Below are positions 3,135-61,161 of a stretch of 64,000 nucleotides of DNA, piece by piece. Within the stretch, counting starts at the first letter, position 1. Each line of letters starts with the position of its first letter. Below the pieces are notes generated by a model. That model was not told where the DNA came from. It did no database searches and worked only from the letters and a program-made list of their open reading frames with translations. A program made the translations under genes and the position numbers. This DNA is from Bryobacteraceae bacterium (GTDB taxonomy: Bacteria > Acidobacteriota > Terriglobia > Bryobacterales > Bryobacteraceae). The stretch spans positions 21,087 to 85,086 of the forward strand of contig DASREJ010000239.1 of assembly GCA_035652115.1 (NCBI GenBank). The letters run 5' to 3'.

Positions 3135-3650
3135 CTACCCTTCTTTGATGCCTTTACGATGCGGCTTGATGAGATCAAACAGCAATAAGACGGCTCCCAC
3201 GCTAATGGCGCTATCGGCAACATTGAAGGCCGGAAACGACCATGTACCGTGGTACACCTCGATGAAATCGGTCACCGTACCTCGAAAAATTCGGTCGAGC
3301 AGATTTCCGAACGCGCCTCCTAATATCAACGCAAGACCGAACCGCGTAGCTGCTGAACGAAAAGCGCCGTTTCGGCTCCACAGCGCCGAGGCCACAAATA
3401 CCAGAACGGTTGCCGAGATACCTATTAAGACGATACTGCGCAAAATCGGGTTGCCTTCGGCCAAAACACCAAAGGCCGCACCGGGATTTTCGGCATGGAC
3501 GATACGAAGCCAATCCGGAATAATCGAGATGCTGTCGAATGAGCGCAGTGAGTGGAGAATGAGCAACTTGGTAATACGATCAGCTACCAAGATGAGCAAC
3601 GCGGCTCCGGCTGCGGTGATCCGAGCGCTTACATAAGGCCGGCTCGGCAC
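3135..3650 (-). CDS. lspA: lipoprotein signal peptidase II
   Basis: Carries the motifs FGNLLDRIFRGTVTDFIEVY and FPAFNVADSAISVGAVLLL. The ORF-track start at 3752 overlaps ileS by 100 nt. An in-frame GTG at 3648..3650 overlaps the ileS TAG by 1 nt (TAGTG) and gives a normal 171-aa LspA. Confidence 0.88.
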   Translation of the reverse strand: MPSRPYVSARITAAGAALLILVADRITKLLILHSLRSFDSISIIPDWLRIVHAENPGAAFGVLAEGNPILRSIVLIGISATVLVFVASALWSRNGAFRSAATRFGLALILGGAFGNLLDRIFRGTVTDFIEVYHGTWSFPAFNVADSAISVGAVLLLFDLIKPHRKGIKEG

Positions 3651-6466
3651 TAGTTCAAATGTTCCGGCAGAACTGAGGCACACGCCGCGCATACGGTCGG
3701 AAAATCGGGATTGCTGCCAACGTCTGTAGTGTATTTCCAGCAGCGCTCGCATTTATCGCCCCGGGCCCGCTCCACTTCAACCGCTAATTCATTGTCATCG
3801 GCGCCTTGCTGCAACTCCACTTGAGAGACGATGAACCAGGCTGGCAGATCGGACAAGTGCGCATTCAGCAGTCGGTGATTCGCTTCGGAAGCCCTCAAAA
3901 CAACTGCTGCTTCTAACGAACCACCGATGAGTTTGTCTTCACGCGCATTGTCGAGAGCTTTAAGAACTTCGTTGCGAATGGGGACCAACTTGTCCCAATC
4001 GGCAGCCTCGCGACGCTGCGCGTCAGTTATCCCGTCGGTCAATTCGTCGGGTGCAGGGAAGTATGACAAGTGGACACTTTCAGTCGCCGTACTCTTCGAA
4101 TCGGGATGTTGCCAGACTTCTTCGCAGGTAAACGATAATATTGGAGCGAGCAGCCGAACAAGCGCCATATTCAGGCGATGAAGGACGGTTTGATTCGTAC
4201 GGCGCGCTGTTCTGCTTTGGGTATAGAGCCTGTCCTTCGATACGTCAAAATAAAGCGCGCTGAGATCTGTGATGACGAAATCGTAGACTGCGCGGTAGAC
4301 TTTGTGAAATTCGTATTGGTCGTACCAAGCGCGGCAGCGGCGGACCAAGTCTTCGGCACGAACCAGAATCCAGGAATCGATGCCGGAGAGACGATCGCCA
4401 GACACCGTATTAATCGCTGGATCGAAGTCATGGAGATTGCTCAGCATGTAGCGGAAGCCGCTGTTGCGAATCTTTCGATAAGCGTCTTCGAGACGAGTCA
4501 GAATCGTTTCCGACATGCGCACGTCTTCGGTGAAGTCTACCGACGCCACCCAGAGCCGGAGCACGTCCGCTCCTTTTTTCATCACGATTTCAGAAGGCTC
4601 GATGATATTGCCTAAAGACTTGGACATCGCGCGACCATCGGCATCGAGTGTCCAGCCGTGAGTGGCGCACTCGCGATAGGGTGAAGCGTTCTTCAGCCCA
4701 ACGCCAATGAGTAATGAGCTGTGGAACCAGCCGCGATATTGATCGCCGCCTTCGATATACATGTCGGATGGCCAAGTGACGCCGTTCTGCGGCGTGAGTG
4801 TTGCCAAGTGGCTTGATCCGGAATCGAACCACACGTCCAAGATGTCGGTCTCTTTGCGAAAGGTCGTGGCGCCGCAGCGGGAGCAAGCGCAGCCAGGACC
4901 CATCAGCTCTTCAACGGTTTTTGAATACCAGACGTCGGCCGTGTGCTCGCGGAATTGTGCGACCACCTTTTCGAGCACGGCGCGATCCGTAAAGGGCGTG
5001 GCGCAGCTCTCACAATAGAAGACAACGATGGGAACGCCCCAGACCCGTTGACGCGAGATGCACCAGTCCGGGCGCGCCGCAATCATGTTCCACATCCGCT
5101 CTTCGCCCCAGCTCGGATGCCAGCTCACTTGCTTGATTGCGTGAAGAGAGCGAGCGCGAAGATCGTTGCGATCCATGCCGATGAACCATTGCTCGGTCGC
5201 GCGGAAAATCACCGGATTGTGACAGCGCCAGCAATGCGGATAGCTGTGATCGAGACGCTCTTGTCCTGCAAGTGCGCCATGCTCTTCGAGCAGCTTAATG
5301 ACGAGCGGATTGATCTCCCAAACCGTTTTGCCGATCAATTCGTCAGGAAGTTTTCCGCTGGCGCCTTCCGCGTGAAAAATACGGCCGGCGGCATCGACCG
5401 GGCAATACACGGGAATCCCATAACGTTGGCCGATAACGAAGTCTTCTTGTCCGTGACCAGGAGCAGTGTGTACTGCGCCGGTACCTTGTTCGAGCGTGAC
5501 GTGATCGCCGAGAAGGCCTAGTGAATCGCGGTCAATAAAAGGATGGCGGAACACCGCGCGCTCGAGTTTTGAACCAGGGAAGCGCGCAACGATGGTCTGA
5601 TCCCAGCCCAACGCCTCCGCTAACTTCGGCAAGAGCCCTTCTGCAACAATCGCAACGCCCTGGGGCGTATCGACCGCCACGTACTCAAATTTCGGATTGA
5701 AGGCGATCGCTAGATTGGCCGGAATCGTCCATGGGGTCGTGGTCCAGATCAGGCAATAAACATTGCGCCCGGCTAAGGCAGGATCGATCGCGGCCGGATC
5801 GGAAGCGAGCTTGAACCGGACATAAATGGAAGGGCTGGTGTGATTTTCGTATTCAACTTCGGCTTCGGCGAGCGCGGTGCGGTCTTTGATGCACCAGTGG
5901 ACAGGCTTCAAGCCCTTATAAATGTAGTCTTCATGAAGAAAGTCAACGAACGCCTGCGCGATGATCGCTTCATATTCGGCGCTCATCGTTAAGTAGGGGT
6001 CAGCCCAACGTCCCAGCACGCCGAGACGCTTGAACTCCGTGCGGTGAATGTCGACGAATTTTGCGGCGTATGCCCGGCAATGCGCACGAATTTCCACGAT
6101 GGACATTGCGGCCTTGCGCTTACCGAGTTCTTGATCGACTTTGAACTCAATCGGCAGGCCATGACAATCCCAACCGGGAATGTATGGTGCATCGAAACCG
6201 GCCATTGTTTTGGATTTGACGATGAAGTCCTTCAGGATTTTGTTAAACGCCGTACCCAGGTGAATGTTCCCGTTGGCGTAGGGAGGTCCATCATGCAAGA
6301 CATATTGCGTTAGCCCGGCGCGAGACTCCCGAATCCTTTGATAAAGGTTGATTTCCTCCCAGTGCTCTAGGGTCTTAGGTTCCTTTGAAGGCAGATTTGC
6401 CTTCATGGGGAAGGTAGTTTTCGGCAGGTTGACCGTCTTTTTCAGGTCAACGGAGGAGACATTCAT
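3650..6466 (-). CDS. ileS: isoleucine--tRNA ligase
   Basis: 938 aa. HIGH-type motif PYANGNIHLGTAFNKILKD, KMSKS motif (AMSKSLGN) and a C-terminal Zn-finger cysteine cluster (CERCW...CAAC). Confidence 0.97.
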   Translation of the reverse strand: MNVSSVDLKKTVNLPKTTFPMKANLPSKEPKTLEHWEEINLYQRIRESRAGLTQYVLHDGPPYANGNIHLGTAFNKILKDFIVKSKTMAGFDAPYIPGWDCHGLPIEFKVDQELGKRKAAMSIVEIRAHCRAYAAKFVDIHRTEFKRLGVLGRWADPYLTMSAEYEAIIAQAFVDFLHEDYIYKGLKPVHWCIKDRTALAEAEVEYENHTSPSIYVRFKLASDPAAIDPALAGRNVYCLIWTTTPWTIPANLAIAFNPKFEYVAVDTPQGVAIVAEGLLPKLAEALGWDQTIVARFPGSKLERAVFRHPFIDRDSLGLLGDHVTLEQGTGAVHTAPGHGQEDFVIGQRYGIPVYCPVDAAGRIFHAEGASGKLPDELIGKTVWEINPLVIKLLEEHGALAGQERLDHSYPHCWRCHNPVIFRATEQWFIGMDRNDLRARSLHAIKQVSWHPSWGEERMWNMIAARPDWCISRQRVWGVPIVVFYCESCATPFTDRAVLEKVVAQFREHTADVWYSKTVEELMGPGCACSRCGATTFRKETDILDVWFDSGSSHLATLTPQNGVTWPSDMYIEGGDQYRGWFHSSLLIGVGLKNASPYRECATHGWTLDADGRAMSKSLGNIIEPSEIVMKKGADVLRLWVASVDFTEDVRMSETILTRLEDAYRKIRNSGFRYMLSNLHDFDPAINTVSGDRLSGIDSWILVRAEDLVRRCRAWYDQYEFHKVYRAVYDFVITDLSALYFDVSKDRLYTQSRTARRTNQTVLHRLNMALVRLLAPILSFTCEEVWQHPDSKSTATESVHLSYFPAPDELTDGITDAQRREAADWDKLVPIRNEVLKALDNAREDKLIGGSLEAAVVLRASEANHRLLNAHLSDLPAWFIVSQVELQQGADDNELAVEVERARGDKCERCWKYTTDVGSNPDFPTVCAACASVLPEHLN

Positions 6467-6568: not shown

Positions 6569-9500
6569 ATGCGTTTGATCGTTCAGCAATTTCAGTTGCA
6601 AAACCCGACCTGGCAGGGGAATGCCTGGCCGGGACAGAATCTCACCGCAAGCGTGACCGCGGCAGGAATTACCAACGATGAACGAATCGAATTTGTCATT
6701 CAGGATAATGCCACGAATGAGCGTGTGGATTCGGTCATGGCGGCTGCGGGGCAGACCTCGGTGCAATGGCCGGTTCCGAACCTTCCTAGTACGGCCAATG
6801 TAAGTTTTAGAGCGATTTTGCGCGAAGCTCCTTCGCCAGCGAATGGACAGCTTGCAACGATTATGAGCGTTACATCGCCGGTGCAAGCGCTGCAAAGTTT
6901 TGGTGTCCAGATCAATAACGTCGACGCTGCGTTCGTGCCGGGCCCAGCGCGGGAGCAGCTACAACTCAGCTTCACGGTAACTGACGCCAATAATCGCGCC
7001 ACCCAGGGGCGCTATGAAATTTGGGGCGAACGCTATCCCGGCGCAACACCGGAGCCGCTCTATCGCGAGAATTTTGTTCCGGCGGCGGGGGCTATGAACT
7101 GGAATACTTGGCGCGGTCTCGCGAATAAAGGGCATCTGAACGGAAAATACATCACTCCGGAGTTCAGCCCCTATCGCGTACGCATCATCATCGGAACCAG
7201 CGCCGGCGATGTGGACGATCCGTATGGAGTGGGATTAGGCAAAGTGGCGTGCGCCGAGTCCCCGTTTGAAGTCAAGTTCAAGACAATCGGAATCAAGAAG
7301 TGGCAGAACCTGCAGGAGGCTACAACCGAGGCTGAATATAGGCTGGATAAAACGTTGATGGTAATGCCGCCGCGGAATGCCGACGGCACTTATGCGGCGG
7401 TGGCAGAGTTACCTGAGGATCGGCCTTTAGCCGTCCCTGCCATCGCACAAACAGCGCGAATTCGGGTACCTATCGCACGGCACCAGGCCAAAAAAGATGA
7501 ACTTGACCAGGGTTCTCTCGCAATTGGCGGCAGTTACATGGAAAAAGGCGACACCAAATGGAAAATGGAAGAGCCACTCTACTCTCGTCCCGAGTTGCCG
7601 ATTCAGTTCGAGCCAAAGCTGGCGAGTCGAGTTCCCGGCGCCAATCCCGAAGGTATTTTTGAACCGCAGGCGGTAGGACCGGCAGTTATTGAACCGGTTG
7701 CCGAGGAGTTCTATAACACTGCCTTACTCGATGGCGCCGGTGTTAATCCCACGTATTGCAGGAACGCCGCATTCAAAGTAAAGAAGGGCAAACACGACGC
7801 GCCTTATCACGATGCGAACAACCAGCCTGAATTTCACTATTGGCAGGCCAGGATTGAGGTCTCCAATGCGGACGTCACTGGGAATGTGCGTACGTACGAT
7901 GTGACAACCTTCGATAATGCCCTGAAATATCTCGCAGGGCAGGACGAATTTAAAGAATTGTACGTCTACCTGAACCGGCGGCTTCTGAGCCGGTCAGACC
8001 GGAACGATGACCAGGAGCTAGACAAACATTATTACGACTATCGGGAAATACCGAACGGCCCGAACTCGGTTCAGATTAGGCTCCGTCCGAACTTCACACA
8101 TGTTGACGATGTGCTCTGGATTGTGCGAACGGATTCCACCGCAAGCGGGGACAACAAGGTAAAGAACTGGGAAGTGTTTCCTCCAGGACCGAACTGTCAC
8201 AAATATTATGGCGGCGTGCGCGGCGAAGAACCCACTTCCGATCTCAGCAATTATTTCCGAGCTAATTTTTCGAAGAAAGGTAAGAAGAAACCGATAATCG
8301 GGAAGGCCAATGCCGCCTTTCCGTTTAATAAATATATAGATCTAAAGCCGGATCTTACCAAGCCAAAAGAGCGGCAGGAGCGAGTGGAAACCGGTGTGAT
8401 GCTTAGCGGAAATGAGCTTGGCCGCGCCGGCGTAATTTTTTCGCCCAGTTGCATCGGGGGTGACGCCTATGTCGTTCATGCCTGGATTGAGCGCGAGGGA
8501 TATGCGCGAAGATTCGGGTTTATTGAAGAAGAAGCGGCCATCAAGAGTAAATCGGGAACCATGACCGTATGGCGCTGGGCGCGCATAAAGAATAGCTACC
8601 GGTTGCCGAACATAAACACAAATGGCTTGGCGGCTACCGTGGGAGGAGATGCGGAAACGCCAATGCCTGGACGCGGCTATGCGGGCAATGGCGTGAACAT
8701 GCCAATTGATGGTGCAGCGAATTCCATCAACACTTTTTTCGGAGACAATAAAGCGTTCAATGAATGGACACTGACGGCGCCTCCAGCCGGGGGCGGCGGA
8801 GATCCCGTGCATCAGCACGTCGATCTCAACGCCTATCGCACAAAACACGCTTCTGTAACAAGCTCCTGGACCGGATATGTGTCCATGGCCAACAACGGCG
8901 CCATCAAGAACTACTGCGCGGTGTGGGACGCTTATCGAATGCGGCTGCCGCCGGGGCTTCCTAATCTGCCAAACTTAATCGCGAATACAATCGCAGCGCA
9001 GGCGGTGGGCACTTCCACGCACGACGTCGGAGTTGCAGTCGAAAATGCGATTACCGGTCACGGCGCGAATCCCGATGTCGCGCTCAATGGCGGCGTGGCG
9101 GTGATCCCTAACTACCCCAGCAACGACCCTGACGATTACGAAAATTGGCTGGACGGCCGGTGGGACACCGAATATAACGGAGTGCTGGATGCGCTTGTCC
9201 CCGCGGAAAGCAAGCCTGAAAAAGTAAATGTTCTGCGCTGGCCCTTTCTGCATGAACATGAAGCCTGGATAGGATATGACGATCCTAACGATACCGCGGT
9301 GTATTCAGGCAGCATGACGAACGGCTTTTCTTCCGGCGACGCACAAAGCATGTTTCGTACCGCGGATTTAGTAGGTGGGGTCCGGCAGGCGGCCGACACG
9401 GGAACGTTTCCACATGAAATGGGCCATGCGATGAATCTGATCCATTTTGTCGCTGGAAATTTCGGATGGAAACATCATGATGTCAATTCTCCGGATTGCC

Positions 9501-9790
9501 TCATGAGCTACACATATTGCGGGGCAATTATTCCGCGGGCAAGTTGTAGCGCGCCGGTTGCTGCCGGTGTAACCCGCGAAGATGGTTGGCCGGATAATAT
9601 TCCATCTCCGATCCCATCAAACACGAAAGTCGGGCCTGGGGCGGTGGCCGCCGCAGCATGTATCTACTTTCAAAAATTGCAAACTCTGGGACAACAGCGA
9701 AACGGTCCTTGCGCGAAATGTCAATTGAAGGTCCGAGGCTGGAAAGATGAATTGCTTCCGTTCGCGTGGAAGCATCCCGATTTGTTTTGA
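6569..9790 (+). CDS. large hypothetical protein with a C-terminal metzincin-like zinc-protease signature
   Basis: 1073 aa with no signal peptide. HEMGHAMNLIH lies at 9413..9445 and CLMSY (Met-turn-like) at 9497..9511. An N-terminal ~60-aa module is shared with the ORFs at 14082..15179 and 13687..14070. The ATG at 6569 is the first start after an in-frame TGA at 6539. Confidence 0.7.
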   Translation: MRLIVQQFQLQNPTWQGNAWPGQNLTASVTAAGITNDERIEFVIQDNATNERVDSVMAAAGQTSVQWPVPNLPSTANVSFRAILREAPSPANGQLATIMSVTSPVQALQSFGVQINNVDAAFVPGPAREQLQLSFTVTDANNRATQGRYEIWGERYPGATPEPLYRENFVPAAGAMNWNTWRGLANKGHLNGKYITPEFSPYRVRIIIGTSAGDVDDPYGVGLGKVACAESPFEVKFKTIGIKKWQNLQEATTEAEYRLDKTLMVMPPRNADGTYAAVAELPEDRPLAVPAIAQTARIRVPIARHQAKKDELDQGSLAIGGSYMEKGDTKWKMEEPLYSRPELPIQFEPKLASRVPGANPEGIFEPQAVGPAVIEPVAEEFYNTALLDGAGVNPTYCRNAAFKVKKGKHDAPYHDANNQPEFHYWQARIEVSNADVTGNVRTYDVTTFDNALKYLAGQDEFKELYVYLNRRLLSRSDRNDDQELDKHYYDYREIPNGPNSVQIRLRPNFTHVDDVLWIVRTDSTASGDNKVKNWEVFPPGPNCHKYYGGVRGEEPTSDLSNYFRANFSKKGKKKPIIGKANAAFPFNKYIDLKPDLTKPKERQERVETGVMLSGNELGRAGVIFSPSCIGGDAYVVHAWIEREGYARRFGFIEEEAAIKSKSGTMTVWRWARIKNSYRLPNINTNGLAATVGGDAETPMPGRGYAGNGVNMPIDGAANSINTFFGDNKAFNEWTLTAPPAGGGGDPVHQHVDLNAYRTKHASVTSSWTGYVSMANNGAIKNYCAVWDAYRMRLPPGLPNLPNLIANTIAAQAVGTSTHDVGVAVENAITGHGANPDVALNGGVAVIPNYPSNDPDDYENWLDGRWDTEYNGVLDALVPAESKPEKVNVLRWPFLHEHEAWIGYDDPNDTAVYSGSMTNGFSSGDAQSMFRTADLVGGVRQAADTGTFPHEMGHAMNLIHFVAGNFGWKHHDVNSPDCLMSYTYCGAIIPRASCSAPVAAGVTREDGWPDNIPSPIPSNTKVGPGAVAAAACIYFQKLQTLGQQRNGPCAKCQLKVRGWKDELLPFAWKHPDLF

Positions 9791-11415
9791 TATGGTGGCG
9801 CTCAAGACAGAACAAAGGTGGAAATTTGTATTCACGGCGAATGTTTGTCGGCGCGCTCGGAGGGGTGTGGCTTTTCCCTCGAAATTGTCTTTACGGAAAA
9901 GAGCGTAATACTGGCATGAGCGTTGCCACTTCGCAGTTCGTGCTGGAGATTTCTCCTCGCGGCGATTGGAAGCACGAGCTATTTCCCGAGCAAAGCGCGG
10001 AATTTAACCTGAATCTGCGAAACGCCGGAGCCTCTGTTGCCTCCGCGTTTGCCTTATATGGCAGCTACGAGACTCCGCGTATTGTTGTGTATGACAGCCA
10101 GGGCGCTCGCATCGGAATCTACACGAAAGCGCAACAATACGAACGAAAAGTCGGCGATTTGGCGCGGCGCGAACCTCCGGAGCCGCAACAGCGGCCGATG
10201 CAGCCCGGCAAAGGCAGCAGCATCTCGTTCAATATTTGGGGGTATCGGCCGCCGCTGCCGCCTGGCCACTACTCCGTTCAGGTAGAGCATCAGACCGGTC
10301 CAAGCGAGCCGTTCATTTCTTCGGACCGTTACTCGTTTGAGATTGTTCCGGCCGCAGTGAAGAGTGCGGCGCTTAGTTACGATACAGCAAATCGCATTTC
10401 GTCTGTACTGGCTTGGCTGGACGCGGAAACGCACGGAACCGCGGCATCTGAACGCCTCTTGTTGCGCGTTTCCGCGGTTAAAGGACATGCGTCGGCGATG
10501 CAAGGCGCAACAAGCCACGGGCAGTTTCCCACAGGATCTCTGGTGTCCGTCGCGCAGCTCGCTCGCGGTTCGCAAGAGGACGGGTTGGGGTGGGCGGCGG
10601 TGCTTTCCGGTAAACATGTGACCCTTATTCGCCATAACCTGAGCTATCCCTATTGGAAAAGCGAAGCCGAATTGGCGATTGACGATGCGGTACCCGTTTC
10701 GCGATTTCCGAGCATGGAAGGACAGGCGCTTTTTCTTGCCACCGGCCATGGTGCAAAGGGGCCTACGCTCACAGGAGCGCTGTTCGAACAACCGAAGGGG
10801 CTTTTACAACAGTGGACTATGCCGCTGGCCGAAAGTCCATCCCTGACCGCTTGCTTAGCGCGAGTAAAGCGGCCTGCAGCACTGCTATTGGCGACGAACC
10901 GCCAAAGCGACAGTCAAGTCTCGCGTATTGACGTGACCGCGGAAGGAAAACTAAGCGGCGAAGAAAAGATAGTCCGGCGGTCCCCGAATATCGTAATCGC
11001 TGCTGCGTCCGCATTCAATGCGGAATCGGGAGATGCTTTCTTCGTTCTCGAAGCCGATAGAGAGCAAGCGGACAAAATGGCCGTCGTGACTGTTCCAATG
11101 AGCGGTCCGGTTCGCGCTCCTAAATTGCAGCCGGTGCCTGGATGGCCGCGCGAGGAGAATGGGAGCGCCATCAAGCCGTTGCAAACACAGATAGAGCAAG
11201 CTGTGGACGGCTCAATAGCGATCGTGTTCGTCGATTCGCGTGGATTTTTCTATGGAGGAAAGCTATCCCCGAAGCCCTTTGTCGGAAAGCTCAGGGCGAA
11301 TCCGGAATCGCCGTGCACTTTTCCGCATGTCGCCGCTTTGTCTCGTAATGTCACACCCGCGTGTTTTACGTCGCAAGGCCTCCTCTTCACGCCTGGAGCC
11401 GAGGCTGAGGAGTAA
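9766..11415 (+). CDS. hypothetical protein (start uncertain)
   Basis: 549-aa ORF with no motif I recognise. The track start (GTG 9766) overlaps the upstream gene by 25 nt. Alternative ATG starts are at 9841 and 9916. It ends 9 nt before the next gene, so it is probably co-transcribed. Confidence 0.55.
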   Translation: MEASRFVLIWWRSRQNKGGNLYSRRMFVGALGGVWLFPRNCLYGKERNTGMSVATSQFVLEISPRGDWKHELFPEQSAEFNLNLRNAGASVASAFALYGSYETPRIVVYDSQGARIGIYTKAQQYERKVGDLARREPPEPQQRPMQPGKGSSISFNIWGYRPPLPPGHYSVQVEHQTGPSEPFISSDRYSFEIVPAAVKSAALSYDTANRISSVLAWLDAETHGTAASERLLLRVSAVKGHASAMQGATSHGQFPTGSLVSVAQLARGSQEDGLGWAAVLSGKHVTLIRHNLSYPYWKSEAELAIDDAVPVSRFPSMEGQALFLATGHGAKGPTLTGALFEQPKGLLQQWTMPLAESPSLTACLARVKRPAALLLATNRQSDSQVSRIDVTAEGKLSGEEKIVRRSPNIVIAAASAFNAESGDAFFVLEADREQADKMAVVTVPMSGPVRAPKLQPVPGWPREENGSAIKPLQTQIEQAVDGSIAIVFVDSRGFFYGGKLSPKPFVGKLRANPESPCTFPHVAALSRNVTPACFTSQGLLFTPGAEAEE

Positions 11416-11424
11416 TCAGTCGCG

Positions 11425-13686
11425 ATGAAGCGTCCGTCCAGCCCACCGTATGGTGAGCGCGTTCTCCAGTTGGACCCGCCCTGTCAGGGACGCGATGTTT
11501 GGGACCTGCAAATCAAGCTAATCGCTTGGGGCTCCGGCTCCAATAATGACGGCATCGGCGCGCCGTTCATGCCTGTGCTGGTGACGGGCAAGTTCGACCG
11601 TGCTACGCACGATGCGGTGAAACGCTTCCAACGGACGGCGGGATTGCCGCTCACGGGAATAGTAGATGCACACACGTTTCGAGCCATCGATCGGGAGGGC
11701 GGCCAATACGCGGTCATGGTACACACCATGCGTTGTCCGTGCATTGAACCCGAGCCCATGCCGATTCGGTGCCGTTGTGCGGATCATCACAAAAAAGGGC
11801 CCTGCGACGGCTTCGGCAACGGTCTCTTTGCGGGCAAGTTCCTGCTGGATGGCGTAAAGCTGGCAGACGGAACATCGTTATCCGGCGAGAAACTGGACGT
11901 CTACGATATGCAGGAGTATCCCGGCGTTGACAAGGCGCTGCTTTGGGCTGTACGCGGGCTGATGCGGCGTGCGAATGTAGACCGAATCAAAGTGGTAGCG
12001 GGATACCGCTGCTGGCAGGACAACTACCGTTACACCGATTGGCGGCGATGGCGGCATAGAAAAGCCACTTTTCACTTCGGCAAATCAATAGAGTTCTATC
12101 ACGACAACACCACCACCGGATGCACGGAATGGGGCCAGAATGCCAACGTCCTTGTCGCGTGCGTCCGTTGCCAGGCGATCCGGCGAGCGGCGCTGGATCT
12201 TTGTGGTTTCCAGGCGCGCTGGCAGGAACCCGACCGCGTCAGCTTGGGGGAGGTTGCGGACCGGCTGAGGGAAGGTGACCCATTGGCTAATGCGCCTCAG
12301 CCAGCAAATACGTTCGCCGTACATGTCAGCACGGTGCGACGGCGTGATCGGGAAAAAGACGAATTTGTCAAGTTATACGCCGATAGCGTCAAGCCTATCT
12401 ACGAGGGGAAAGCTCCGGCTTATTCGTATCCGCTGGACTTGGGCAGCGGATACGATTGGCGCACGGCCGGTTGTCTGGATTTCTTCAACAACACGGAAAC
12501 GGGGCAGGGCGGATGGTTTCCGTTCGGTCCGAACAGGATATGGCATACGGGCATTCATCTCTTTCAAGCGGCCAACAGCCCTGTGTACGCCATCGCTGAT
12601 GGCGAAGTACTGGTGTGCAGGGCCGGCGAGAATGAAACGGCGCAGCCGTTCGGATCGCGAAACTTCGTTCTATTGCGCCATAAGCTGAAGGACAAAACTT
12701 GGTATAGCCTCTACATGCATCTGGATAACGGTGCAATAGGCGCCGCTGCGGCAATTGCAGGTAATCCCGTCAAATGGCGGCGAAAAGCGGCCCTATTGAC
12801 TCGCGACCACGTAGAAATGAAGCTGCCGTCGCCGTTTTTTCAAATCGTGAACGGAGGCACAGCAAACAGTTATTTGGGCGGACTTCACGCGCCCGGTGTG
12901 GGAGTGCGCCAGGGCGGCTTGGGACCGGGCGATTGGGTGGAAATTACCGCAAATGCAAATGCTGTCGATCCTACTGCAGGAGGACCCAATCCGACGGACC
13001 CGAAGGTTCCGCAGAACTCCACTATTATCCAGGTTCAGTTGGCGGCCGCAGGCAATCCATATGTGTTCCTGACATTAGAGGGCCAAGAACTGGGAACGAT
13101 CATACGCGCGAATGGCACTCTCGCGCCTGCAATTAATAATCAACGCACTTTCGCACTGTCGAGCCCGATTGGGGTAGCGGCAGGCGAGTTACTTGGTTCT
13201 ATCGGAGCAGCTCCAACGGACGCGCGATTGAATCCGCACGGATCGTATTTGCATTTGGAAGTCTTTTCCGAAGAGGCACTGTTGTCCGGCCCGGGTTACA
13301 TCACGATTGATGCCACAGACAGAACCATCATGATGGACCGCAAGGCGATCTATCAGAAACTTCGCGACAGTAAGATCATTTCCGCGGAGCCCGCTGATGT
13401 GCTGCTCGAAAGCGATGTGGCGGCTCCCGGCGCGGGCATTAATCGCGGTTCATGCCGCAGCGTAATTCTGAAGACCGTATGCCCATGGAACGAAAATATG
13501 AAGACGCGGCTCAATAACTCGCCGTCTTTCACGTATATGCCGGATGGGGACCGCAACAACTTGGGCGATCAAATGAATCAGTACCGGTGGTGGAACAACA
13601 TTGCCGGCGCGCCATCGCTACCTGATCCTAGCGCGCTGTTCTACTATCACCCCATCGCTTTTATGCTGCAGTTAGCAACGAAGTAA
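11425..13686 (+). CDS. multi-domain cell-wall-hydrolase-like protein (PG_binding_1-like + LAS/M15-like + divergent M23/LytM-like)
   Basis: 753 aa with no signal peptide. The PG-binding repeat signature GKFDRATHDAVKRFQRTAGLPLTGIVDAHTFRAI lies at about 11482..11688. GYRCWQDN...HFGKSIEF...FAVHVS (about 11917..12330) resembles the peptidase M15A/DUF882 core. HTGIHLF...VYAIADGEVL...YSLYMHLD...GSYLHLEVF (about 12532..13269) resembles M23. Confidence 0.75.
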   Translation: MKRPSSPPYGERVLQLDPPCQGRDVWDLQIKLIAWGSGSNNDGIGAPFMPVLVTGKFDRATHDAVKRFQRTAGLPLTGIVDAHTFRAIDREGGQYAVMVHTMRCPCIEPEPMPIRCRCADHHKKGPCDGFGNGLFAGKFLLDGVKLADGTSLSGEKLDVYDMQEYPGVDKALLWAVRGLMRRANVDRIKVVAGYRCWQDNYRYTDWRRWRHRKATFHFGKSIEFYHDNTTTGCTEWGQNANVLVACVRCQAIRRAALDLCGFQARWQEPDRVSLGEVADRLREGDPLANAPQPANTFAVHVSTVRRRDREKDEFVKLYADSVKPIYEGKAPAYSYPLDLGSGYDWRTAGCLDFFNNTETGQGGWFPFGPNRIWHTGIHLFQAANSPVYAIADGEVLVCRAGENETAQPFGSRNFVLLRHKLKDKTWYSLYMHLDNGAIGAAAAIAGNPVKWRRKAALLTRDHVEMKLPSPFFQIVNGGTANSYLGGLHAPGVGVRQGGLGPGDWVEITANANAVDPTAGGPNPTDPKVPQNSTIIQVQLAAAGNPYVFLTLEGQELGTIIRANGTLAPAINNQRTFALSSPIGVAAGELLGSIGAAPTDARLNPHGSYLHLEVFSEEALLSGPGYITIDATDRTIMMDRKAIYQKLRDSKIISAEPADVLLESDVAAPGAGINRGSCRSVILKTVCPWNENMKTRLNNSPSFTYMPDGDRNNLGDQMNQYRWWNNIAGAPSLPDPSALFYYHPIAFMLQLATK

Positions 13687-14070
13687 TCAAGCTGAGTGCA
13701 ACGGCGGAATCAGATCTACAGCCATCGGATCCGACAATGCCGTGACATTGTTCAGCCCGACGACGGTTGCTCTGACTTGGACTTGTGTAGGGTAGGGCGG
13801 CGGTTGGGGAAGCAAGGTTTTCCAGTTGAGCGTGTAAGGAACATCCAATTTGTTACCCGTAATCGGTTGGTTCGCAAGCTGATGGAAATGATTGGCAGCG
13901 CCCTGCGCCAGGACCTGAAGCTGGATCATATAGCCATCGGTCACGCGCTCCGTCCTGACGCGAATGGTGACGTCGTCGCCATGCCAGCAACGCGGTTGTG
14001 ACCAGCTAACGGTCACGCGCTCAGTCAACTGAGCAGGATTTACGGTGTCGTGAGTGTTCTCGACATTCAT
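13687..14070 (-). CDS. hypothetical protein carrying one copy of the island-specific W-x-W/G-T module
   Basis: 127 aa with an ATG start. VSWSQPRCWHGDDVTIRVRTERVTDGYMIQLQV aligns with modules in the 1073-aa and 366-aa proteins. Its stop directly abuts the stop of the convergent 753-aa gene. Confidence 0.5.
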   Translation of the reverse strand: MNVENTHDTVNPAQLTERVTVSWSQPRCWHGDDVTIRVRTERVTDGYMIQLQVLAQGAANHFHQLANQPITGNKLDVPYTLNWKTLLPQPPPYPTQVQVRATVVGLNNVTALSDPMAVDLIPPLHSA

Positions 14071-14081
14071 ATATGCGCGCT

Positions 14082-15179
14082 TTAAGGTTTGGTAATTGTG
14101 CTATCGGCCTGATCCGAACCTTGCATCTTGATTCGACAGCGCGTAATAGCAGGTAAATCGATGCGAACTATCTGTTCTTTCCAAGGCGTTGGAATCATGG
14201 CCTGTCCGACTGGAGAATTACCGTTCCAAGTGCCGCCTCCCGAGAAGTAAGCGGTAATCTGAGTATCAAACAGGACGCTGCCGGGTCTCTCAACATTGAG
14301 AATTTGTGTTTTGCGTACCGTTCGTATGTCGCTGAGGCAAACACTTCGGTCGCACTTTGCCTTGAAACGAATGCGGCTTTGTGTCAAAGCGGAGAAGTTT
14401 CCCTCTGACGGCATCCAGGTCACCTGCATCTGGAAATTAGGGCCGGCTGCGGTAATTGTTGCCGGAATGGTATGGATCACTTTGCCGTCATCGAAAGCGT
14501 CAATAATCTGGAACTCGCCGGTCTCGCCAGCATCGAAGCCTGATGCCGAGACCGTTAAAGTCTGATTTGCCCCAATATCTACGAAAGCTGGAGCCGACCA
14601 TTGCGGATTGGACAAGATAGGAATGCTTAGCTTGTATCGTCCGGTGGGAACTTCGTCTTTTTCAACTTTGCCGTTCGCAGGGGTATAGCCGGATTCGAGC
14701 AAAGTCCAAGCGCCCCCGATAGGCGGCTGATATTTCAGCTTGTAGGGAACGTTTTGATCGGGCTGGTTAGCCGAATCGCTAACATCGAACTCTATCCAGT
14801 GCCACGGAACTATGAAGTCATATTGGGTAACGACGCCCGCATTCAGCACTTTGTTCTGAGAAATTCCAGGCTGAACGTTCGCTGTGTCGTACTTGGATGC
14901 AATACCCGGCGGAAAAGTCAGCGTAACCGTGTAATTGCCAAGATGAAGCGGACCGAAGCCGCGGCGGCCGTCGTTTTTCGTATCCTGTGCCGCTGGATTA
15001 TCGGGTCCCGCAGCCGTCGCGGTAACGCCCTCTATGGGGCGCGTCTGGGCCGGCGGCGGTGGTATCGGAGCGCGCCCGCCCTGCACGGATACCTGAATGA
15101 TGCCTCTTTGAGCGCGGCAAGTGACAGTGGGACTATTGATGTTTCTTTTTGTTAGTTGGTCTTGTAGGAAGCTCGCCAT
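14082..15179 (-). CDS. hypothetical protein with beta-sandwich-like repeats and one island-specific module
   Basis: The track start is TTG 15182. The next codon is ATG (15177..15179), preceded by a GAAAGG Shine-Dalgarno-like sequence 7 nt upstream. Segments such as GFGPLHLGNYTVTLTFPPG and VPTGRYKLSIP resemble carboxypeptidase-regulatory-like folds. The shared module lies at 14412..14609. Confidence 0.6.
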   Translation of the reverse strand: MASFLQDQLTKRNINSPTVTCRAQRGIIQVSVQGGRAPIPPPPAQTRPIEGVTATAAGPDNPAAQDTKNDGRRGFGPLHLGNYTVTLTFPPGIASKYDTANVQPGISQNKVLNAGVVTQYDFIVPWHWIEFDVSDSANQPDQNVPYKLKYQPPIGGAWTLLESGYTPANGKVEKDEVPTGRYKLSIPILSNPQWSAPAFVDIGANQTLTVSASGFDAGETGEFQIIDAFDDGKVIHTIPATITAAGPNFQMQVTWMPSEGNFSALTQSRIRFKAKCDRSVCLSDIRTVRKTQILNVERPGSVLFDTQITAYFSGGGTWNGNSPVGQAMIPTPWKEQIVRIDLPAITRCRIKMQGSDQADSTITKP

Positions 15180-15182
15180 CAA

Positions 15183-15611
15183 TTAGCCTTTCGCAGGCGT
15201 GCCGTTTATGGCGTTGAGTGTTTGGAGACGCGTTTCCAACCATTCCACACGGTCGTCGCCCGTTCCTTCGCGCGAGTTGAGAATATCCACCGCCCAAGCG
15301 CATTCCGGGCGCGATTCGAAGTCTTCACCGTGAAGGATCAGGAAATTCAAAAACGTGGCGACATGCAGCTCAGATGCAATCCCGTACTTCAAGGCCTTCG
15401 GAATGTTGGATTCGACAAACGAGGCCGCCTGCTCGGTCCCGCCTGTGAACTTTTGCGGATACCTTCGCGCAAATATCGCGGCTACGCGCTGCACGTACTC
15501 GCGCCGCAGAGCGTTATTGAGCACTTCCATTTGCTCGTTTCTGATGGTGAGCATGGGCCAGGAGGAAATACGCAGCTTGCATCGTAGCATGCGAGTTGCG
15601 GTCTGGATCAC
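15183..15611 (-). CDS. small hypothetical protein, predicted all-helical (start uncertain)
   Basis: 142-aa ORF from GTG 15611, which lies 5 nt after the GH13 stop. An internal ATG at 15554 gives MLTIRNEQMEVLNNALRREYVQRV..., which looks like a more natural N-terminus. Its stop lies 3 nt before the next gene's ATG. Confidence 0.45.
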   Translation of the reverse strand: MIQTATRMLRCKLRISSWPMLTIRNEQMEVLNNALRREYVQRVAAIFARRYPQKFTGGTEQAASFVESNIPKALKYGIASELHVATFLNFLILHGEDFESRPECAWAVDILNSREGTGDDRVEWLETRLQTLNAINGTPAKG

Positions 15612-15616
15612 GCTAA

Positions 15617-17341
15617 TTAGGGTTCAAGCTGCCCTATATAAGCGCCGTATGGCTGAAGATTGATATGCGATAGATCGTTCGTTTCCCGAGCGTTGGGATA
15701 AGACACAAGAATCGTCTTCGCGTGCTTGCCGGAAACGCCCCTTGCGTCCGACACGTTGATGGCTTGTGGCGAAGCGGTGAAGTTCAATGCGACCAGGACG
15801 GCCCTTCCGTCCTTTGTCTTGCGTAGGTAAGACAGAACCGTGTTGCTGCTGTCGTCTATGGGAATAAAATCGCCATCGCGCAATTGCGGATTTGTCTTGC
15901 GCAGGTCAATTAGCTTTTTGTAATAGCTCAGCAGCGAATTCGGATCTTTTTCCTGAGCCGCGACATTGACTGTTTTATAATCGCTGCCGACTGGAAGCCA
16001 CGTGCTTTTCCCTGCGCTGAATCCTGCGTTGACGCCGGCGTTCCATTGCATCGGCGTGCGCTCCGCGTCGCGACCTTTGTCTTTGGGCCAGCCTGTGCGC
16101 CCCACAGGATCACGAACATCTTCGATGTGCGCCGGCGGATGATCGACCATGCCAATCTCTTCACCGTAATAAATGAGCGCCGCATCACGAGGTGTGAGCA
16201 GAAGTGTCGCGAGTAAGCGGGCAATCTCGGCGTTGTGCTTGCCGTCGCCATACCGATTGATGCTGCGCGAATTATCATGATTCTCAAACACGAAAAGCGG
16301 CACGTTTCCGTTCAGCTTCGTTTCGGCGTCGGCCAGCTTTTGACGGAATTCCGAAACGGCCAAGCGATTTATGAAGCCGAACTGGGTGTCCATCGGCAAC
16401 TGCAATTCATCGTTGGTGGACCCGTACATCTTTGCGAGCTCACCCACGTTGGGCACGTATGTCTCTCCGATCAAGACACAGCCCGGATACTCATCGGTGA
16501 CTTTTCGCAACTCGCGCAAAACGTCATGTACCTTGGGCAGATTGTCCGTATACACGCGCTTGCGCTTTCTTTCACCGAACGCATCCAATCCTGCTTCGGG
16601 ACCGGCTAGATAGGCATCGTCTCTCAAAGCAATGTCTTCGAAAAGACTCGTAATCGCATCGAGACGGAGGCCGGCCACACCCTTTGCCATCCAGAATCGG
16701 CAAACATCATACATCGCTTTGCGGACGTCGGAATTTTCCCAATTCAGATCGGGCTGCTCTTTATAGAACCGGTGATAGTAGAACTGCTTGCGAGCAGGAA
16801 CATACTGCCAGGCAGAGTGGCCGAACTCCGATTGCCAGTTGTTCGGCGGTTGGCCGCCGGGTTTGCCGTCTTTCCAGATGTACCAATCGGCTTTCGGATT
16901 GTTGCGCGAAGATGCGGACTCGATAAACCAGGGATGCTTATCGGAACTATGGTTCAAAACCATGTCGTTAAGCACTCGTATGTTGCGCTTCTTGGCTTCG
17001 GCCATCAGCTTGTCAAAGTCCGCCATGGTGCCGAATTGCTTGTCGATACCGCGGTAGTCGGAAATATCGTAGCCGAAATCGACTTGCGGGGACGGATAAA
17101 ACGGCGTGATCCAGATGGCGTCGACGCCGAGCGCCTTTAGATAATCTAAATTCTCCGTGATTCCGTTGAGGTCGCCAATACCGTCTCCGTTGGAATCACC
17201 AAAACTGCGCGGATAGACTTCATAAATCACGGCTCTTCGCCACCAGTTGTTGTCATCCATGCTCGCCGCCGGCAACCAGCAGGGAGCGAGCACGGCGGCG
17301 GCTAAGCAGGCGACGGCAGAACTGTGCAACAGGGAGCGCAT
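15617..17341 (-). CDS. secreted GH13 alpha-glucosidase / oligo-1,6-glucosidase-like enzyme
   Basis: Signal peptide MRSLLHSSAVACLAAAVLA. WWRRAVIYEVYPRSFGDSNGDGIGDLNGITENLDYLKALGVDAIWITPFYPSPQVDFGYDISDY is a classic GH13 subfamily signature. Also GLRLDAI and the FENHDNSR region. Confidence 0.9.
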   Translation of the reverse strand: MRSLLHSSAVACLAAAVLAPCWLPAASMDDNNWWRRAVIYEVYPRSFGDSNGDGIGDLNGITENLDYLKALGVDAIWITPFYPSPQVDFGYDISDYRGIDKQFGTMADFDKLMAEAKKRNIRVLNDMVLNHSSDKHPWFIESASSRNNPKADWYIWKDGKPGGQPPNNWQSEFGHSAWQYVPARKQFYYHRFYKEQPDLNWENSDVRKAMYDVCRFWMAKGVAGLRLDAITSLFEDIALRDDAYLAGPEAGLDAFGERKRKRVYTDNLPKVHDVLRELRKVTDEYPGCVLIGETYVPNVGELAKMYGSTNDELQLPMDTQFGFINRLAVSEFRQKLADAETKLNGNVPLFVFENHDNSRSINRYGDGKHNAEIARLLATLLLTPRDAALIYYGEEIGMVDHPPAHIEDVRDPVGRTGWPKDKGRDAERTPMQWNAGVNAGFSAGKSTWLPVGSDYKTVNVAAQEKDPNSLLSYYKKLIDLRKTNPQLRDGDFIPIDDSSNTVLSYLRKTKDGRAVLVALNFTASPQAINVSDARGVSGKHAKTILVSYPNARETNDLSHINLQPYGAYIGQLEP

Positions 17342-17423: not shown

Positions 17424-18260
17424 TTACTTGGTGAGAACTTCTTCGATGTATGCCAAAGCGCGTGGATCTTTGGATTGACCCAACCAGAAGAAAGCCTGCT
17501 TGCGCACTTCCGGATTACGCTGTGTGCGCGCGACCTCGATTAATTTCGGCACGCCTTCATCTTTCGGCAATTGCGACAAGGCAAATACTGCGCGTTTTTT
17601 AACGTTCGTGTCAGGGTCATTGAGAATTGCATCCGTGATGGTGGCGCTGGCGCGCGCGCCGGCCTTCTGTGCCAACCAAAAAAGCGCTTGCTCGCGGATG
17701 TGCGGCGAGGCGTCCGACCGGGCAAGCTTCACAAGCGCATCAAGAGCCGCCGGATCCTCTTGCATGGATAGCGCAAGAATCGCGCCGTTAGAAACGCGGT
17801 TCGAAATGTCCTGGTGAATGGTCTGGTCTAGAAATTCTACGCTCTTCGCCGCGGGCACGCCGGTTATCCATGTGAAAGGCAGGCCGCCGGCATCGAGGGG
17901 GCATTCGAGAGAGTAGATGTGAATCTTCTGAATCTGGTTATTTTCAGCCCGTACTAGAAGCGCCACCGTATCGGAGCCTTCCAATTGAATTGGCTGCGTT
18001 GGACGCGTGTTGATCACAGCACCCGAGCGGTTGTCCTCGAGCCAACAGCCTCCGCCATTGCCGCTCCAGCAGCAACTATCGTGATCGCCCCGTTTTGTCT
18101 TGATGGCATAACCGAACCATGCAGGCGCCGATGATTTGACTTGTGCCGAAAGATCGCCGGAAAAAGCTCGCGTTTCCAGGCGCGCGTTTACGACGTTCGG
18201 TGAGCCTGATTGTCCAAAAGCGACAGCCGAGGCGAGTAAAAAGCCGGCTAAATATCTCAC
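17424..18260 (-). CDS. secreted HEAT-repeat protein with a Cys-rich N-terminal domain
   Basis: The C-terminal half has PBS-lyase/HEAT-like repeats (DPDTNVKKRAVFALSQL, RNPEVRKQAFFWLGQ). A GTG at 18258..18260 overlaps the upstream stop (GTGA) and yields the signal peptide VRYLAGFLLASAVAFG. The track start at 18338 is over-extended. Confidence 0.72.
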   Translation of the reverse strand: MRYLAGFLLASAVAFGQSGSPNVVNARLETRAFSGDLSAQVKSSAPAWFGYAIKTKRGDHDSCCWSGNGGGCWLEDNRSGAVINTRPTQPIQLEGSDTVALLVRAENNQIQKIHIYSLECPLDAGGLPFTWITGVPAAKSVEFLDQTIHQDISNRVSNGAILALSMQEDPAALDALVKLARSDASPHIREQALFWLAQKAGARASATITDAILNDPDTNVKKRAVFALSQLPKDEGVPKLIEVARTQRNPEVRKQAFFWLGQSKDPRALAYIEEVLTK

Positions 18261-19477
18261 TTCAGCACCTCCATCATGTAGTCGGTCACTTCCTTGGAAT
18301 GGACCAGGGACATTTTCTGTACGATCTCCTGTTTCCATTTGGGATCTTTCTCACTGCGCGCTAAATCAACTAATGCTTTGCCGTTCTGCTGCAGAAAGAG
18401 AGAGTTCAAAACCGCGTGACGAATGTCGGGGTTCTGATCGCTTTGGTAAATGCTAACCAGTACCTCGCCATTGCCTCTTCTGCCCATTATTCCCAGATCC
18501 TTAATCGCTGCCAAACGTAGAGCCGGATCTTTCTCATTTCGGGCAAGCTCTTCCATCCAAGTTGAATTCCCACTGACAAACATCGAATTCAAAATCGTTT
18601 TCTTGTTTTCGACGGAGGTTTCGGATTCGTAAAGCTGCCGAAGCTGATCTTGCGCGCCCATCACTCCCAACTGCCGGATGGCGTCCTTGCGCAACTCCGG
18701 ATTTTGTTCGGTTTTGGCAACGTCAAACAGGAAATCGCGAGATCCCGATTGCATAAAACTGCGGATAATGTCGTGTTTGAGCTGCACATCCGAAGAAGAC
18801 TTGTAGATGGAGACCAAGTCGGCGCGAGTTTGAGGATTTCCCATCAGGCCCATGTAGCGAATTGCTCTTCGTTGCAATGCCGGATTCGCCGAATCATGCG
18901 CGATTTGGTTAAGCGTATTGCGCGCCTCCGGCGATGAACTCTGCGTCAGCACAAACATTGCCCGCTCTTTCAGTTTTTCTGAAGCATCTCCCTTCAGCAG
19001 TTTCTGCAGGATCGGAACGGCCTGATCGGGGTCGCTCTGCATCAAGCTGTTGATGGCCAAAAGCTTGAGTTCTTCGTCAGACTGCGCATTGGGATTGGGG
19101 GGCGCGCCGGCTTGCCCTCGCATTTCCAGTTCAAGGGCGTTGGCGTCCTTAGTCCAGCGGCTGGATGGAAACTGCGAGCGCAAAGCAGCCACGGTTGCGA
19201 GAGCCTCCTCACGGCGGCCCGCCCGGCTCTCTGCATACGCTTTCCAATACAGAGCGGCATCGCTGCTCGCACGATTGCGCGATACGGAGGCTTCGAAATC
19301 CCTTATGGCCCTGTCCCAATGGCGCTCATCCAGTTCGCGCATGCCGTTTTGATACTCGGAGTCGTCACGGTTAATACTGCGTGCGGATTGAAAGCTCATC
19401 GCGCCCGGCGCAGGCGGCCATCCTTGAGCCGCAAGAGAGCCGGCAAAAGCGAGAGATAAAAGAAAATTACGAATCAT
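18257..19477 (-). CDS. secreted TPR/HEAT-repeat protein
   Basis: 406 aa with signal peptide MIRNFLLSLAFAGSLAAQG. It carries repeated ...NPELRKDAIRQLG..., ...DPALRLAAIKDLG... and ...NPDIRHAVLNSL... units. An ATGA overlap joins it to the anti-sigma gene. Confidence 0.75.
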   Translation of the reverse strand: MIRNFLLSLAFAGSLAAQGWPPAPGAMSFQSARSINRDDSEYQNGMRELDERHWDRAIRDFEASVSRNRASSDAALYWKAYAESRAGRREEALATVAALRSQFPSSRWTKDANALELEMRGQAGAPPNPNAQSDEELKLLAINSLMQSDPDQAVPILQKLLKGDASEKLKERAMFVLTQSSSPEARNTLNQIAHDSANPALQRRAIRYMGLMGNPQTRADLVSIYKSSSDVQLKHDIIRSFMQSGSRDFLFDVAKTEQNPELRKDAIRQLGVMGAQDQLRQLYESETSVENKKTILNSMFVSGNSTWMEELARNEKDPALRLAAIKDLGIMGRRGNGEVLVSIYQSDQNPDIRHAVLNSLFLQQNGKALVDLARSEKDPKWKQEIVQKMSLVHSKEVTDYMMEVLK

Positions 19478-61055: not shown

Positions 61056-61161
61056 GCACTACCCCCTCGGTGGTGTTTAGCGAAGACTACCTGTTTCGAA
61101 ATACTACCACCGCGGGAGCAGATGTCAATAGACTTTCTAGGCTTCGGATGCTAACGCTTTG

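Follow-up and report, generated by a model that had tools for sequence, protein, structure and literature searches.

How might a peptidoglycan-binding protein that lacks a Sec signal leave the cell in which it is made? The question is raised by a six-gene island of a member of the Bryobacteraceae (Acidobacteriota), which we analyzed within a 64-kb stretch (the window, i.e., the whole of the DNA analyzed) of an 87.9-kb contig from a metagenome-assembled genome (MAG; protein HZS56455.1). The six open reading frames (ORFs) of the island, all present where a preliminary description made from the letters of the DNA had placed them, are labeled g1 to g6, with g1 to g3 on the plus arm and g4 to g6 on the minus arm. 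With the starts corrected as detailed below, a Kyte-Doolittle scan of the six proteins detected neither transmembrane segments nor a hydrophobic N terminus (maximal 19-residue mean, 1.27), so that the lack of export signals reported earlier holds after revision of the starts.

The preliminary description could not place the set in any described system. This judgment no longer stands: g3 falls, as judged from its sequence, in the WHIX class, a group of type VI secretion system (T6SS) proteins published in 2025 (PMC12135965), and g6 corresponds to the effector-binding lobe of the Tap adaptors (PMC11582642). Among the readings then proposed, that of cargo for a type VI-like apparatus encoded elsewhere is backed by these two homologies and by synteny with VgrG and DUF4123 genes. 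We therefore consider it probable (roughly 0.7) that the island represents an orphan cassette of T6SS cargo genes, located apart from any vgrG or T6SS core genes; a WHIX domain in g3, with its link to T6SS export, would explain how a peptidoglycan-binding protein can dispense with a Sec signal. The two other readings, a lysis-released enzyme set and an envelope-remodeling complex, are less likely.

WHIX and adaptor homologies

The product of g3 (positions 11425 to 13686, plus strand; 753 amino acids [aa]) begins with a PG_binding_1 domain (aa 22 to 88; 11488 to 11688, plus strand), which was recovered well above the Pfam threshold (E = 2.6 × 10−11; 44 bits versus a 23-bit cutoff) and is matched by 13 of 13 family members; PG_binding_1 is a recurrent domain of vgrG loci (PMC10673891). 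Between this domain and an M15-like region (aa ~160 to 305; 11902 to 12339, plus strand; GYRCW..TFHFGKSIEF..AVHV) lies a cluster of invariant residues, Cys-x-Cys...Cys-x-Cys-x2-His...Cys (aa 104 to 127; 11734 to 11805, plus strand). This Cys4-His cluster has not been described in WHIX effectors and probably serves as a site for structural zinc. The remainder of the protein (aa ~345 to 753; 12457 to 13686, plus strand) is the WHIX domain, made up of a first region (aa ~345 to 440), a variable insert (aa ~441 to 575), and a second region (aa ~576 to 753). The first region carries the WHxxxH signature from which WHIX takes its name (W373-H374-T-G-I-H378; 12541 to 12558, plus strand), whose two histidines are invariant in the family (13/13) and whose tryptophan is present in 11 of the 13 members.

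Profile-profile comparisons with hhalign support this assignment at both ends of the protein. For the founding WHIX effector, Va01435 of Vibrio alginolyticus (WP_005373349.1), we used residues 1 to 452 from the structure file of PMC12135965; the g3 family profile aligned to them with 98.1% probability (E = 1.1 × 10−13; 299 columns), with aa 356 to 696 placed onto aa 24 to 399 and both WHIX regions covered, and a BLASTP comparison of the first WHIX region of g3 with that of the founder gave an E value of 2 × 10−7. Upstream, aa 18 to 341 of g3 aligned to the N-terminal PG_binding1 plus Peptidase M15 extension of Awe1 from Aeromonas jandaei (WP_266216180.1; 99.5%; E = 3 × 10−22). Because it is homologous both to the two WHIX regions and to this extension, g3 is classified on sequence grounds as a subclass II WHIX-type T6SS protein with the architecture PG_binding_1, Cys4-His cluster, M15-like region, and WHIX. 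It resembles the subclass II proteins of Fridman et al. (PLoS Biol 2025; PMC12135965) in its WHxxxH motif, in the bipartite domain with a variable insert, in the presence of an N-terminal extension, and in the lack of a signal peptide.

According to the published account, the bipartite WHIX domain suffices for export through the T6SS, and a role in capping the C-terminal tail of VgrG has been proposed for it; toxins that target peptidoglycan are joined to one of its ends or to both, and >98% of the genomes that bear it have a T6SS (PMC12135965). WHIX effectors are normally flanked by signal-peptide immunity genes, and WHIX proteins without a C-terminal extension can precede a separately encoded peptidoglycan-degrading enzyme (PMC12135965). 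Against this background g3 differs in several respects. It lacks the C-terminal toxin found in 96.5% of WHIX proteins (PMC12135965); no signal-peptide immunity genes flank it; the ligands of its M15-like region are weakly conserved; it sits in a fixed five-gene core with four uncharacterized proteins; and its hosts are Acidobacteriota, Myxococcota, and Victivallales-type MAGs, whereas the published survey dealt with Proteobacteria (PMC12135965). The portions of the supplements of that study available to us hold no match for Acidobacteria, Myxococcota, or the Pseudomonas strain discussed below. In g3, a WHIX protein with neither a C-terminal toxin nor a flanking immunity gene is tied to four conserved unannotated families: that of g1, which is rare and metzincin-like with some 1,000 residues, that of the β-propeller protein g2, and those of the β-sandwich proteins g4 and g5.

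The earlier reading of g3 as a combination of peptidoglycan-binding, M15-like, and M23-like modules can be retained for the first of these, which passes the Pfam threshold; the M15-like site is poorly conserved, and the M23 similarity, while real, belongs to a WHIX domain and does not come with a canonical M23 site. The first WHIX region can be aligned with both lysostaphin and Pfam M23, a similarity to canonical M23 peptidases of the LytM/lysostaphin type, but an insert of ~135 aa splits the g3 domain, and the Vibrio founder of the WHIX class itself scores on M23 with an E value of 0.07. A canonical M23 domain spanning aa 374 to 612 was considered and rejected: in 13 of 13 family members the HxxxD motif is replaced by HxxxH and the first His of the HxH motif by Phe, Tyr, or Ser. 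For genome annotation, a partial Pfam M23 match with HxxxH may therefore mark a T6SS loading domain and not a peptidase.

Profile searches seeded with g3 recovered about 80 full-length relatives, followed by a sharp fall to partial matches, which have the M23-like block and a C-terminal WW...HP block in common with g3 and terminate in GH19, GH24, or amidase domains. Outside the family, the nearest relatives (P0161 to P0167) are WHIX proteins of this C-terminal makeup, with lysozyme, chitinase, or amidase ends. One of them, the Pseudomonas WHIX-like protein P0164, is encoded inside a T6SS cluster with ClpV, VgrG, PAAR, TssA, TssF, TssG, and TssJ and is followed by small signal-peptide ORFs. The same Pseudomonas cluster (L028/L029, 5183 to 13601) encodes proteins of 927 aa and 864 aa (the latter being P0164) with near-identical N termini; small ORFs with signal peptides and a PAAR gene come after each of the two.

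The second homology is that of g6 (15183 to 15554, minus strand; 123 aa). Adaptors of the DUF4123 (Tap) family consist of a conserved N-terminal lobe, which binds the C-terminal helix-turn-helix of VgrG, and a variable helical C-terminal lobe, which binds the effector (PMC11582642). Over aa 2 to 118, g6 is 46% identical to aa 179 to 293 (in the region of residues 179 to 296) of a 297-aa DUF4123 protein (P0171) that is the sixth gene of a related locus (L001), and its domain is likewise found C-terminal to DUF4123 in P0276 and P0305. Given the two-lobed build of the adaptor, this homology suggests that g6 is a stand-alone effector-binding unit, i.e., that it is, as far as sequence can tell, the helical effector-recognizing C-terminal lobe of a DUF4123/Tap adaptor without the VgrG-binding lobe. 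The domain has no Pfam model and is widespread; a full HMMER search recovered at least 1435 representative clusters (e.g., P0168 to P0317), in most of which it is either stand-alone (~120 aa) or in tandem (~250 aa). Its fusions include DUF4123 plus the g6 domain and FHA plus DUF4123 plus the g6 domain, and many of the ~250-aa proteins hold the g6 domain twice.

Among related loci, g6 is encoded beside a stand-alone DUF4123 N-lobe in one (L017) and in the same locus as DUF4123 fragments, located upstream of g1, in another (L007), while in a third (L012) a DUF4123 gene lies just upstream of g1 and g6 was not detected on that contig. Tap-1/TseL of Vibrio cholerae is a further example of cargo dependent on a DUF4123 adaptor. 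Comparison with the VgrG-DUF4123 (Tap/TEC) islands, such as those of Tap6 and Tap14 of Pseudomonas aeruginosa (Colautti et al. 2024, PMC11582642), reveals in L017 the same order of vgrG, DUF4123, and cargo, and g6 aligns with the helical C-lobe. In the window and in most relatives, by contrast, the two lobes are encoded separately, the locus lacking the one that binds VgrG, and the cargo is a five-gene set that falls outside the five described neighborhoods (Rhs, Tle, α/β-hydrolase, MIX, and MATE; PMC11582642).

The five-gene core and its proteins

To place the island in its wider context, we gathered related loci by exact look-up and by a metagenome scan and compared all of their ORFs with the six proteins of the window. 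g1, g2, and g3 are adjacent and in the same order wherever their neighbors can be read, and g5 and g4 adjoin them in every locus with flanks readable on both sides (about 17 loci). Three layouts are seen: a colinear one, g(6)-g5-g4-g1-g2-g3, in L002, L008, L016, L017, L025, and L030; a convergent one, as in the window, in L001, L003, L006, L007, L010, L012, L015, L019, and L027; and a divergent one in L026. That the g1-g2-g3 and g5-g4 blocks have been kept together through inversions points to a functional unit; they form one conserved five-gene core, which bears out the earlier view of the set as coherent. g6 is frequent in these loci and not universal, being absent from those of Sorangium (L002) and Byssovorax (L030). 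The outer flanks consist of unrelated housekeeping genes. Through the hosts of the relatives, as listed above, the WHIX domain and the logic of the Tap adaptor reach beyond Proteobacteria into Acidobacteriota of soil, Myxococcota, and lineages of the Planctomycetes-Verrucomicrobia-Chlamydiae type. To our knowledge, T6SS biology is almost unexplored in Acidobacteriota and Myxococcota. A scan of a genome collection with a single protein returned two unrelated metallopeptidase matches and nothing more.

Two of the loci link the core directly to vgrG. In L017, all genes lie on one strand in the order VgrG-DUF4123-g6-g5-g4-g1-g2-g3, and the VgrG protein carries Phage_GPD, Phage_base_V, and Gp5_trimer_C domains; in Sorangium cellulosum (L002), the order is g5-g4-g1-g2-g3-DUF2169-VgrG. 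The DUF2169 protein of Sorangium may be dedicated to a VgrG-PAAR module of its own, an arrangement seen in the Tvp systems, and we therefore count this locus as linkage to a vgrG island only; Tvp complexes are multiprotein accessory sets around VgrG (PMC13373197).

Several further features of these loci were observed. One cassette has an rve integrase gene at a distance of ~2 kb, and another has a DDE transposase gene directly upstream of g1 (L003, 20848 to 21678; L027, 9017 to 9775), which hints that the cassette moves. The g2 and g3 homologs are split into two ORFs in L001 (14853 to 17025), L006 (13191 to 16975), and L007, where the DUF4123 gene is also fragmented (9190 to 9869 and 13273 to 16982); such breaks could reflect decaying cassettes or frameshift errors in the metagenomes. 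In the colinear locus L008, a gene for a bpX2-domain protein (MoxR-vWA-β-propeller ternary system) is situated directly downstream of g3 (17628 to 19121).

The largest protein of the core, g1 (6569 to 9790, plus strand; 1073 aa), belongs to a rare family with 41 clusters among 5.8 billion proteins. In an AlphaFold2 model (mean predicted local distance difference test [pLDDT] score, 82.8), β-sandwich domains form long arrays; the C-terminal domain that comes after them is judged from its motifs to be a metzincin-like zinc peptidase. The metzincin-like zinc site reported earlier is evident as the motif HEMGHAMNLIH together with a CLMSY turn (9413 to 9511, plus strand), and its seven zinc-site and turn residues (H949, E950, H953, and H959; C977, M979, and Y981) are invariant in 35 of 35 homologs, which argues for a working enzyme. 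The site fits the pattern HExxHxxGxxH with three His ligands and a catalytic Glu, the Gly position being occupied by Asn, His, Asp, Gln, or Leu, and the CLMSY turn resembles the SxMxY Met-turn of serralysin and astacin, in a segment that the model renders at a pLDDT of <50. We recovered no significant match to a curated metzincin family, either with Pfam-type profiles over the 35 members or in a profile search of the Protein Data Bank (PDB): Peptidase_M66 is matched below threshold in 12 of the 35 (best E = 3.8 × 10−5) and Reprolysin_5, also below threshold, in 11, and the g1 profile matches the zinc site of serralysin (Protease C) weakly (E = 0.9). Foldseek searches of the PDB and of viral structures with the whole model returned arrays of the Ig, FN3, and complement C3/CD109 macroglobulin kinds at TM-scores of ≤0.15; these matches are generic, and we draw no functional assignment from them. 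On its motifs, g1 is a candidate metzincin-like peptidase and the best toxin candidate of the set.

The C-terminal domain of VgrG2b from P. aeruginosa is reported, in work of Wood and colleagues from 2019, to be a metallopeptidase T6SS effector. That domain would resemble g1 in bringing a zinc-metallopeptidase motif to a T6SS-linked protein without a signal peptide; g1 differs in being a stand-alone protein of 1073 aa with long β-sandwich arrays, a serralysin/astacin-like HExxHxxxxxH plus CLMSY site, and no known immunity partner. Some g1 homologs are longer (1230 to 1390 aa) and contain an inserted E1_FCCH-like β-barrel (L008, 10001 to 13822; L025, 2386 to 6558; P0029, P0030, P0032, and P0036), and one homolog also matches a phage endosialidase β-barrel family.

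When profiles of g1, g2, g4, and g6 were compared with PDB sequences, no significant match emerged. For g2 (9916 to 11415, plus strand; 499 aa) no Pfam, NCBIfam, or PDB sequence match was found. Its AlphaFold2 model, built on an alignment of 11 sequences (pLDDT, 78.2), comprises an N-terminal β-sandwich and a β-propeller, for which Foldseek retrieved propellers of several kinds (sialidase with a carbohydrate-binding module, clathrin, and WD40); as these are generic, they assign no function, and g2 could be a partner, a chaperone, or a cytoplasmic inhibitor. The product of g4 (13687 to 14070, minus strand; 127 aa), which is found beside g5 in every locus with readable flanks, is a single β-sandwich module related to the N terminus of g1 and shows a weak Pfam match to DUF7383 (E = 0.004). 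In g5 (14082 to 15179, minus strand; 365 aa), two transthyretin/prealbumin-like β-sandwich domains precede the module shared with g1 and a C-terminal region; its family profile matches the SdrD B-domain (E = 3 × 10−8; aa 35 to 92) and a transthyretin-like protein (E = 0.002; aa 131 to 185) in the PDB, and the Pfam CarboxypepD_reg match, weak in the window protein, is stronger in the homologs from L017 and L016.

A private module common to the two arms had been proposed, and profile-profile comparison corroborates it. The N-terminal β-sandwich of g1 (aa 10 to 97; 6596 to 6859, plus strand) has counterparts in g4 and in aa 190 to 289 of g5: g4 aligns to aa 15 to 97 of g1 with 90% probability (hhalign E = 1.4 × 10−6), and aa 190 to 258 of g5 align to aa 10 to 69 of g1 with 85% probability. 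BLASTP between g1 and g5 gives E values of 0.003 to 0.007, depending on the direction of the search.

Role of the cassette

If the island is T6SS cargo, synthesis of its products would take place in the cytoplasm, and a VgrG whose gene lies elsewhere would serve as the spike that carries them. They would be attached to it through the WHIX domain of g3 and through g6, the latter in concert with a Tap N-lobe provided in trans. The cargo would then be fired into a neighboring cell, where g3 would bind peptidoglycan. The g1 protease would be the main enzymatic payload, and g2, g4, and g5 would be either codelivered subunits or loading and stabilizing partners. Given its lack of a C-terminal toxin and its poorly conserved M15-like site, g3 may act mainly as a carrier and not as a toxin, as far as its sequence indicates. 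A more specific and tentative proposal, in which we place limited confidence, is that the five-gene core is a preassembled multisubunit T6SS payload, with a toxin-less WHIX carrier capping VgrG, the g1 protease with its β-sandwich and β-propeller partners, and a split Tap recognition; the lack of an immunity gene would then mean that the targets, for example, fungi, protists, or Gram-positive bacteria, are unlike the producer. Such a payload would represent a kind of T6SS cargo that has yet to be described, and if the proteins are indeed codelivered, the cassette would be a tractable case of multiprotein T6SS cargo and of a split adaptor.

A number of observations count against the assignment to T6SS cargo. 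The window contains no vgrG, DUF4123 N-lobe, PAAR, or T6SS core gene over its 64 kb; g6 itself has no DUF4123 match, and no DUF4123 ORF is present anywhere in the window. Among the about 17 related loci, vgrG is beside the cassette in 2 (L017 and L002) and a DUF4123 N-lobe in 4. No signal-peptide gene, as expected for a periplasmic immunity protein, is conserved with the cassette in the window or in the related loci, whereas the P0164 locus does have such ORFs. In addition to its missing C-terminal toxin, the g3 family shows poor conservation of the putative zinc ligands of the M15-like region, with H217 in 10 of the 13 members, Glu, Thr, or Gln at the Asp position, and the third His in 7 of the 13. 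The peptidase assignment of g1 draws on motifs and subthreshold profile matches, and the fold of its zinc-site part is not confidently modeled, pLDDT being <50 over much of aa 958 to 1036. Finally, it is solely linkage that ties each of g1, g2, g4, and g5 to secretion.

Some of these same points would be accommodated if the set were a T6SS accessory without toxins, in which g3 and its partners would decorate the spike, make it more stable, or aid its passage through peptidoglycan, with no killing involved. Such a role would explain why no immunity gene is needed, there being no signal-peptide neighbors in any locus, and it would agree with the unconserved M15-like ligands, with a WHIX region that lacks one catalytic His of the M23 enzymes, and with the toxin-less C terminus of g3; the Tvp complexes provide a precedent (PMC13373197). 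We nevertheless regard it as unlikely, since the g1 zinc site is invariant throughout the 35 homologs, the window g3 retains H217, E223, and H300, and most cassettes lie away from any vgrG, which is unusual for structural accessories.

That the proteins form an antibacterial or predatory enzyme set independent of the T6SS, released by lysis, vesicles, or another route, with the VgrG and Tap neighbors coincidental or secondary, appears quite unlikely. About 14 of the 17 loci have housekeeping flanks alone and no vgrG, and among the hosts are lineages that are predatory or live in soil (Sorangium, Byssovorax, and Acidobacteriota), as this explanation would have it. It is countered by the domain class of g3, which is reported to be T6SS specific (PMC12135965), by the homology of g6 to an adaptor lobe repeatedly fused to DUF4123, and by the occurrence of two T6SS adaptor types and VgrG beside the same core in different lineages.

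Very unlikely, in our estimate, is a stranded remnant, i.e., a cassette that in the window genome has lost vgrG and the VgrG-binding half of its adaptor and is heading to decay. The window does have only the C-lobe protein g6 and no vgrG, and the split g2 and g3 homologs of L001, L006, and L007 and the fragmented DUF4123 gene of L007 would fit such a course. Yet the six window ORFs are intact, with conserved starts and invariant motifs; g6 proteins commonly stand alone, as in many representatives of ~120 aa; the genes for T6SS cargo are frequently distant from the vgrG on which they depend; and the split ORFs may be metagenome assembly errors.

An origin as a phage-derived lysis or tail module, as cargo of an extracellular contractile injection system, or as antiphage defence is most improbable: the PG-binding part of g3 matches phage endolysin PHROGs and the β-sandwich arrays of g1 resemble FN3-rich phage proteins, but no g1 or g3 relative was found on the viral contigs searched, g1, g2, g4, g5, and g6 have no PHROG match and none of the six a PADLOC match, no locus contains sheath, tube, or baseplate genes, and the structural matches are to generic Ig-like folds (TM-scores, ≤0.15). 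The contractile-injection or phage reading and the defense reading are thus left without support.

Gene boundaries and surroundings

Two of the gene starts had to be moved. The longest form of g2 (9766 to 11415; 549 aa), which had been described as overlapping the stop region of g1, is a longest-ORF artifact: the homologs are ~499 aa long, and the NCBI call for the same gene (P0070; 499 aa) likewise begins at the ATG at 9916. A spacer of 125 nucleotides (nt) thus separates g2 from g1, with no overlap. A weak terminator-like hairpin lies in it (9852 to 9869, plus strand), and such sites are no commoner in the region than expected by chance. Similarly, all g6 homologs open with MLxIRxEQM, which sets the start at 15554 in place of the longest form (15183 to 15611; 142 aa); the distance to the stop of the upstream GH13 gene is therefore 62 nt, and the 5 nt given before likewise stemmed from use of the longest ORF.

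The other junctions are largely as first described, with 9 nt between the g2 stop and the g3 start, 11 nt between the g4 start and the g5 stop, and the stops of g3 and g4 abutting without a spacer at 13686/13687. The 3-nt gap between g6 and g5 depends on the start chosen for g5: it is found with the ATG, and it shrinks to 0 nt with the TTG that yields a 366-aa protein (14082 to 15182).

No T6SS, phage, or mobile genes were found in the 64-kb window, in agreement with the earlier inspection of the neighborhood. The island does not differ from its flanks in composition and shows no sign of recent transfer, and scans for promoters, terminators, and repeats gave nothing beyond chance, with no flanking repeats that would mark an insertion. 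One flank is formed by the isoleucyl-tRNA synthetase gene (3650 to 6466) and the other by a 574-aa ORF, whose label as a GH13 glucosidase comes from the preliminary description. Elsewhere in the window, and unrelated to the island, the minus strand encodes two very large tandem OMP_b-brl_4 outer-membrane proteins, a GH57 plus DUF3536 protein, and an ankyrin-repeat protein (57177 to 63951, 20858 to 23278, and 38935 to 40401).

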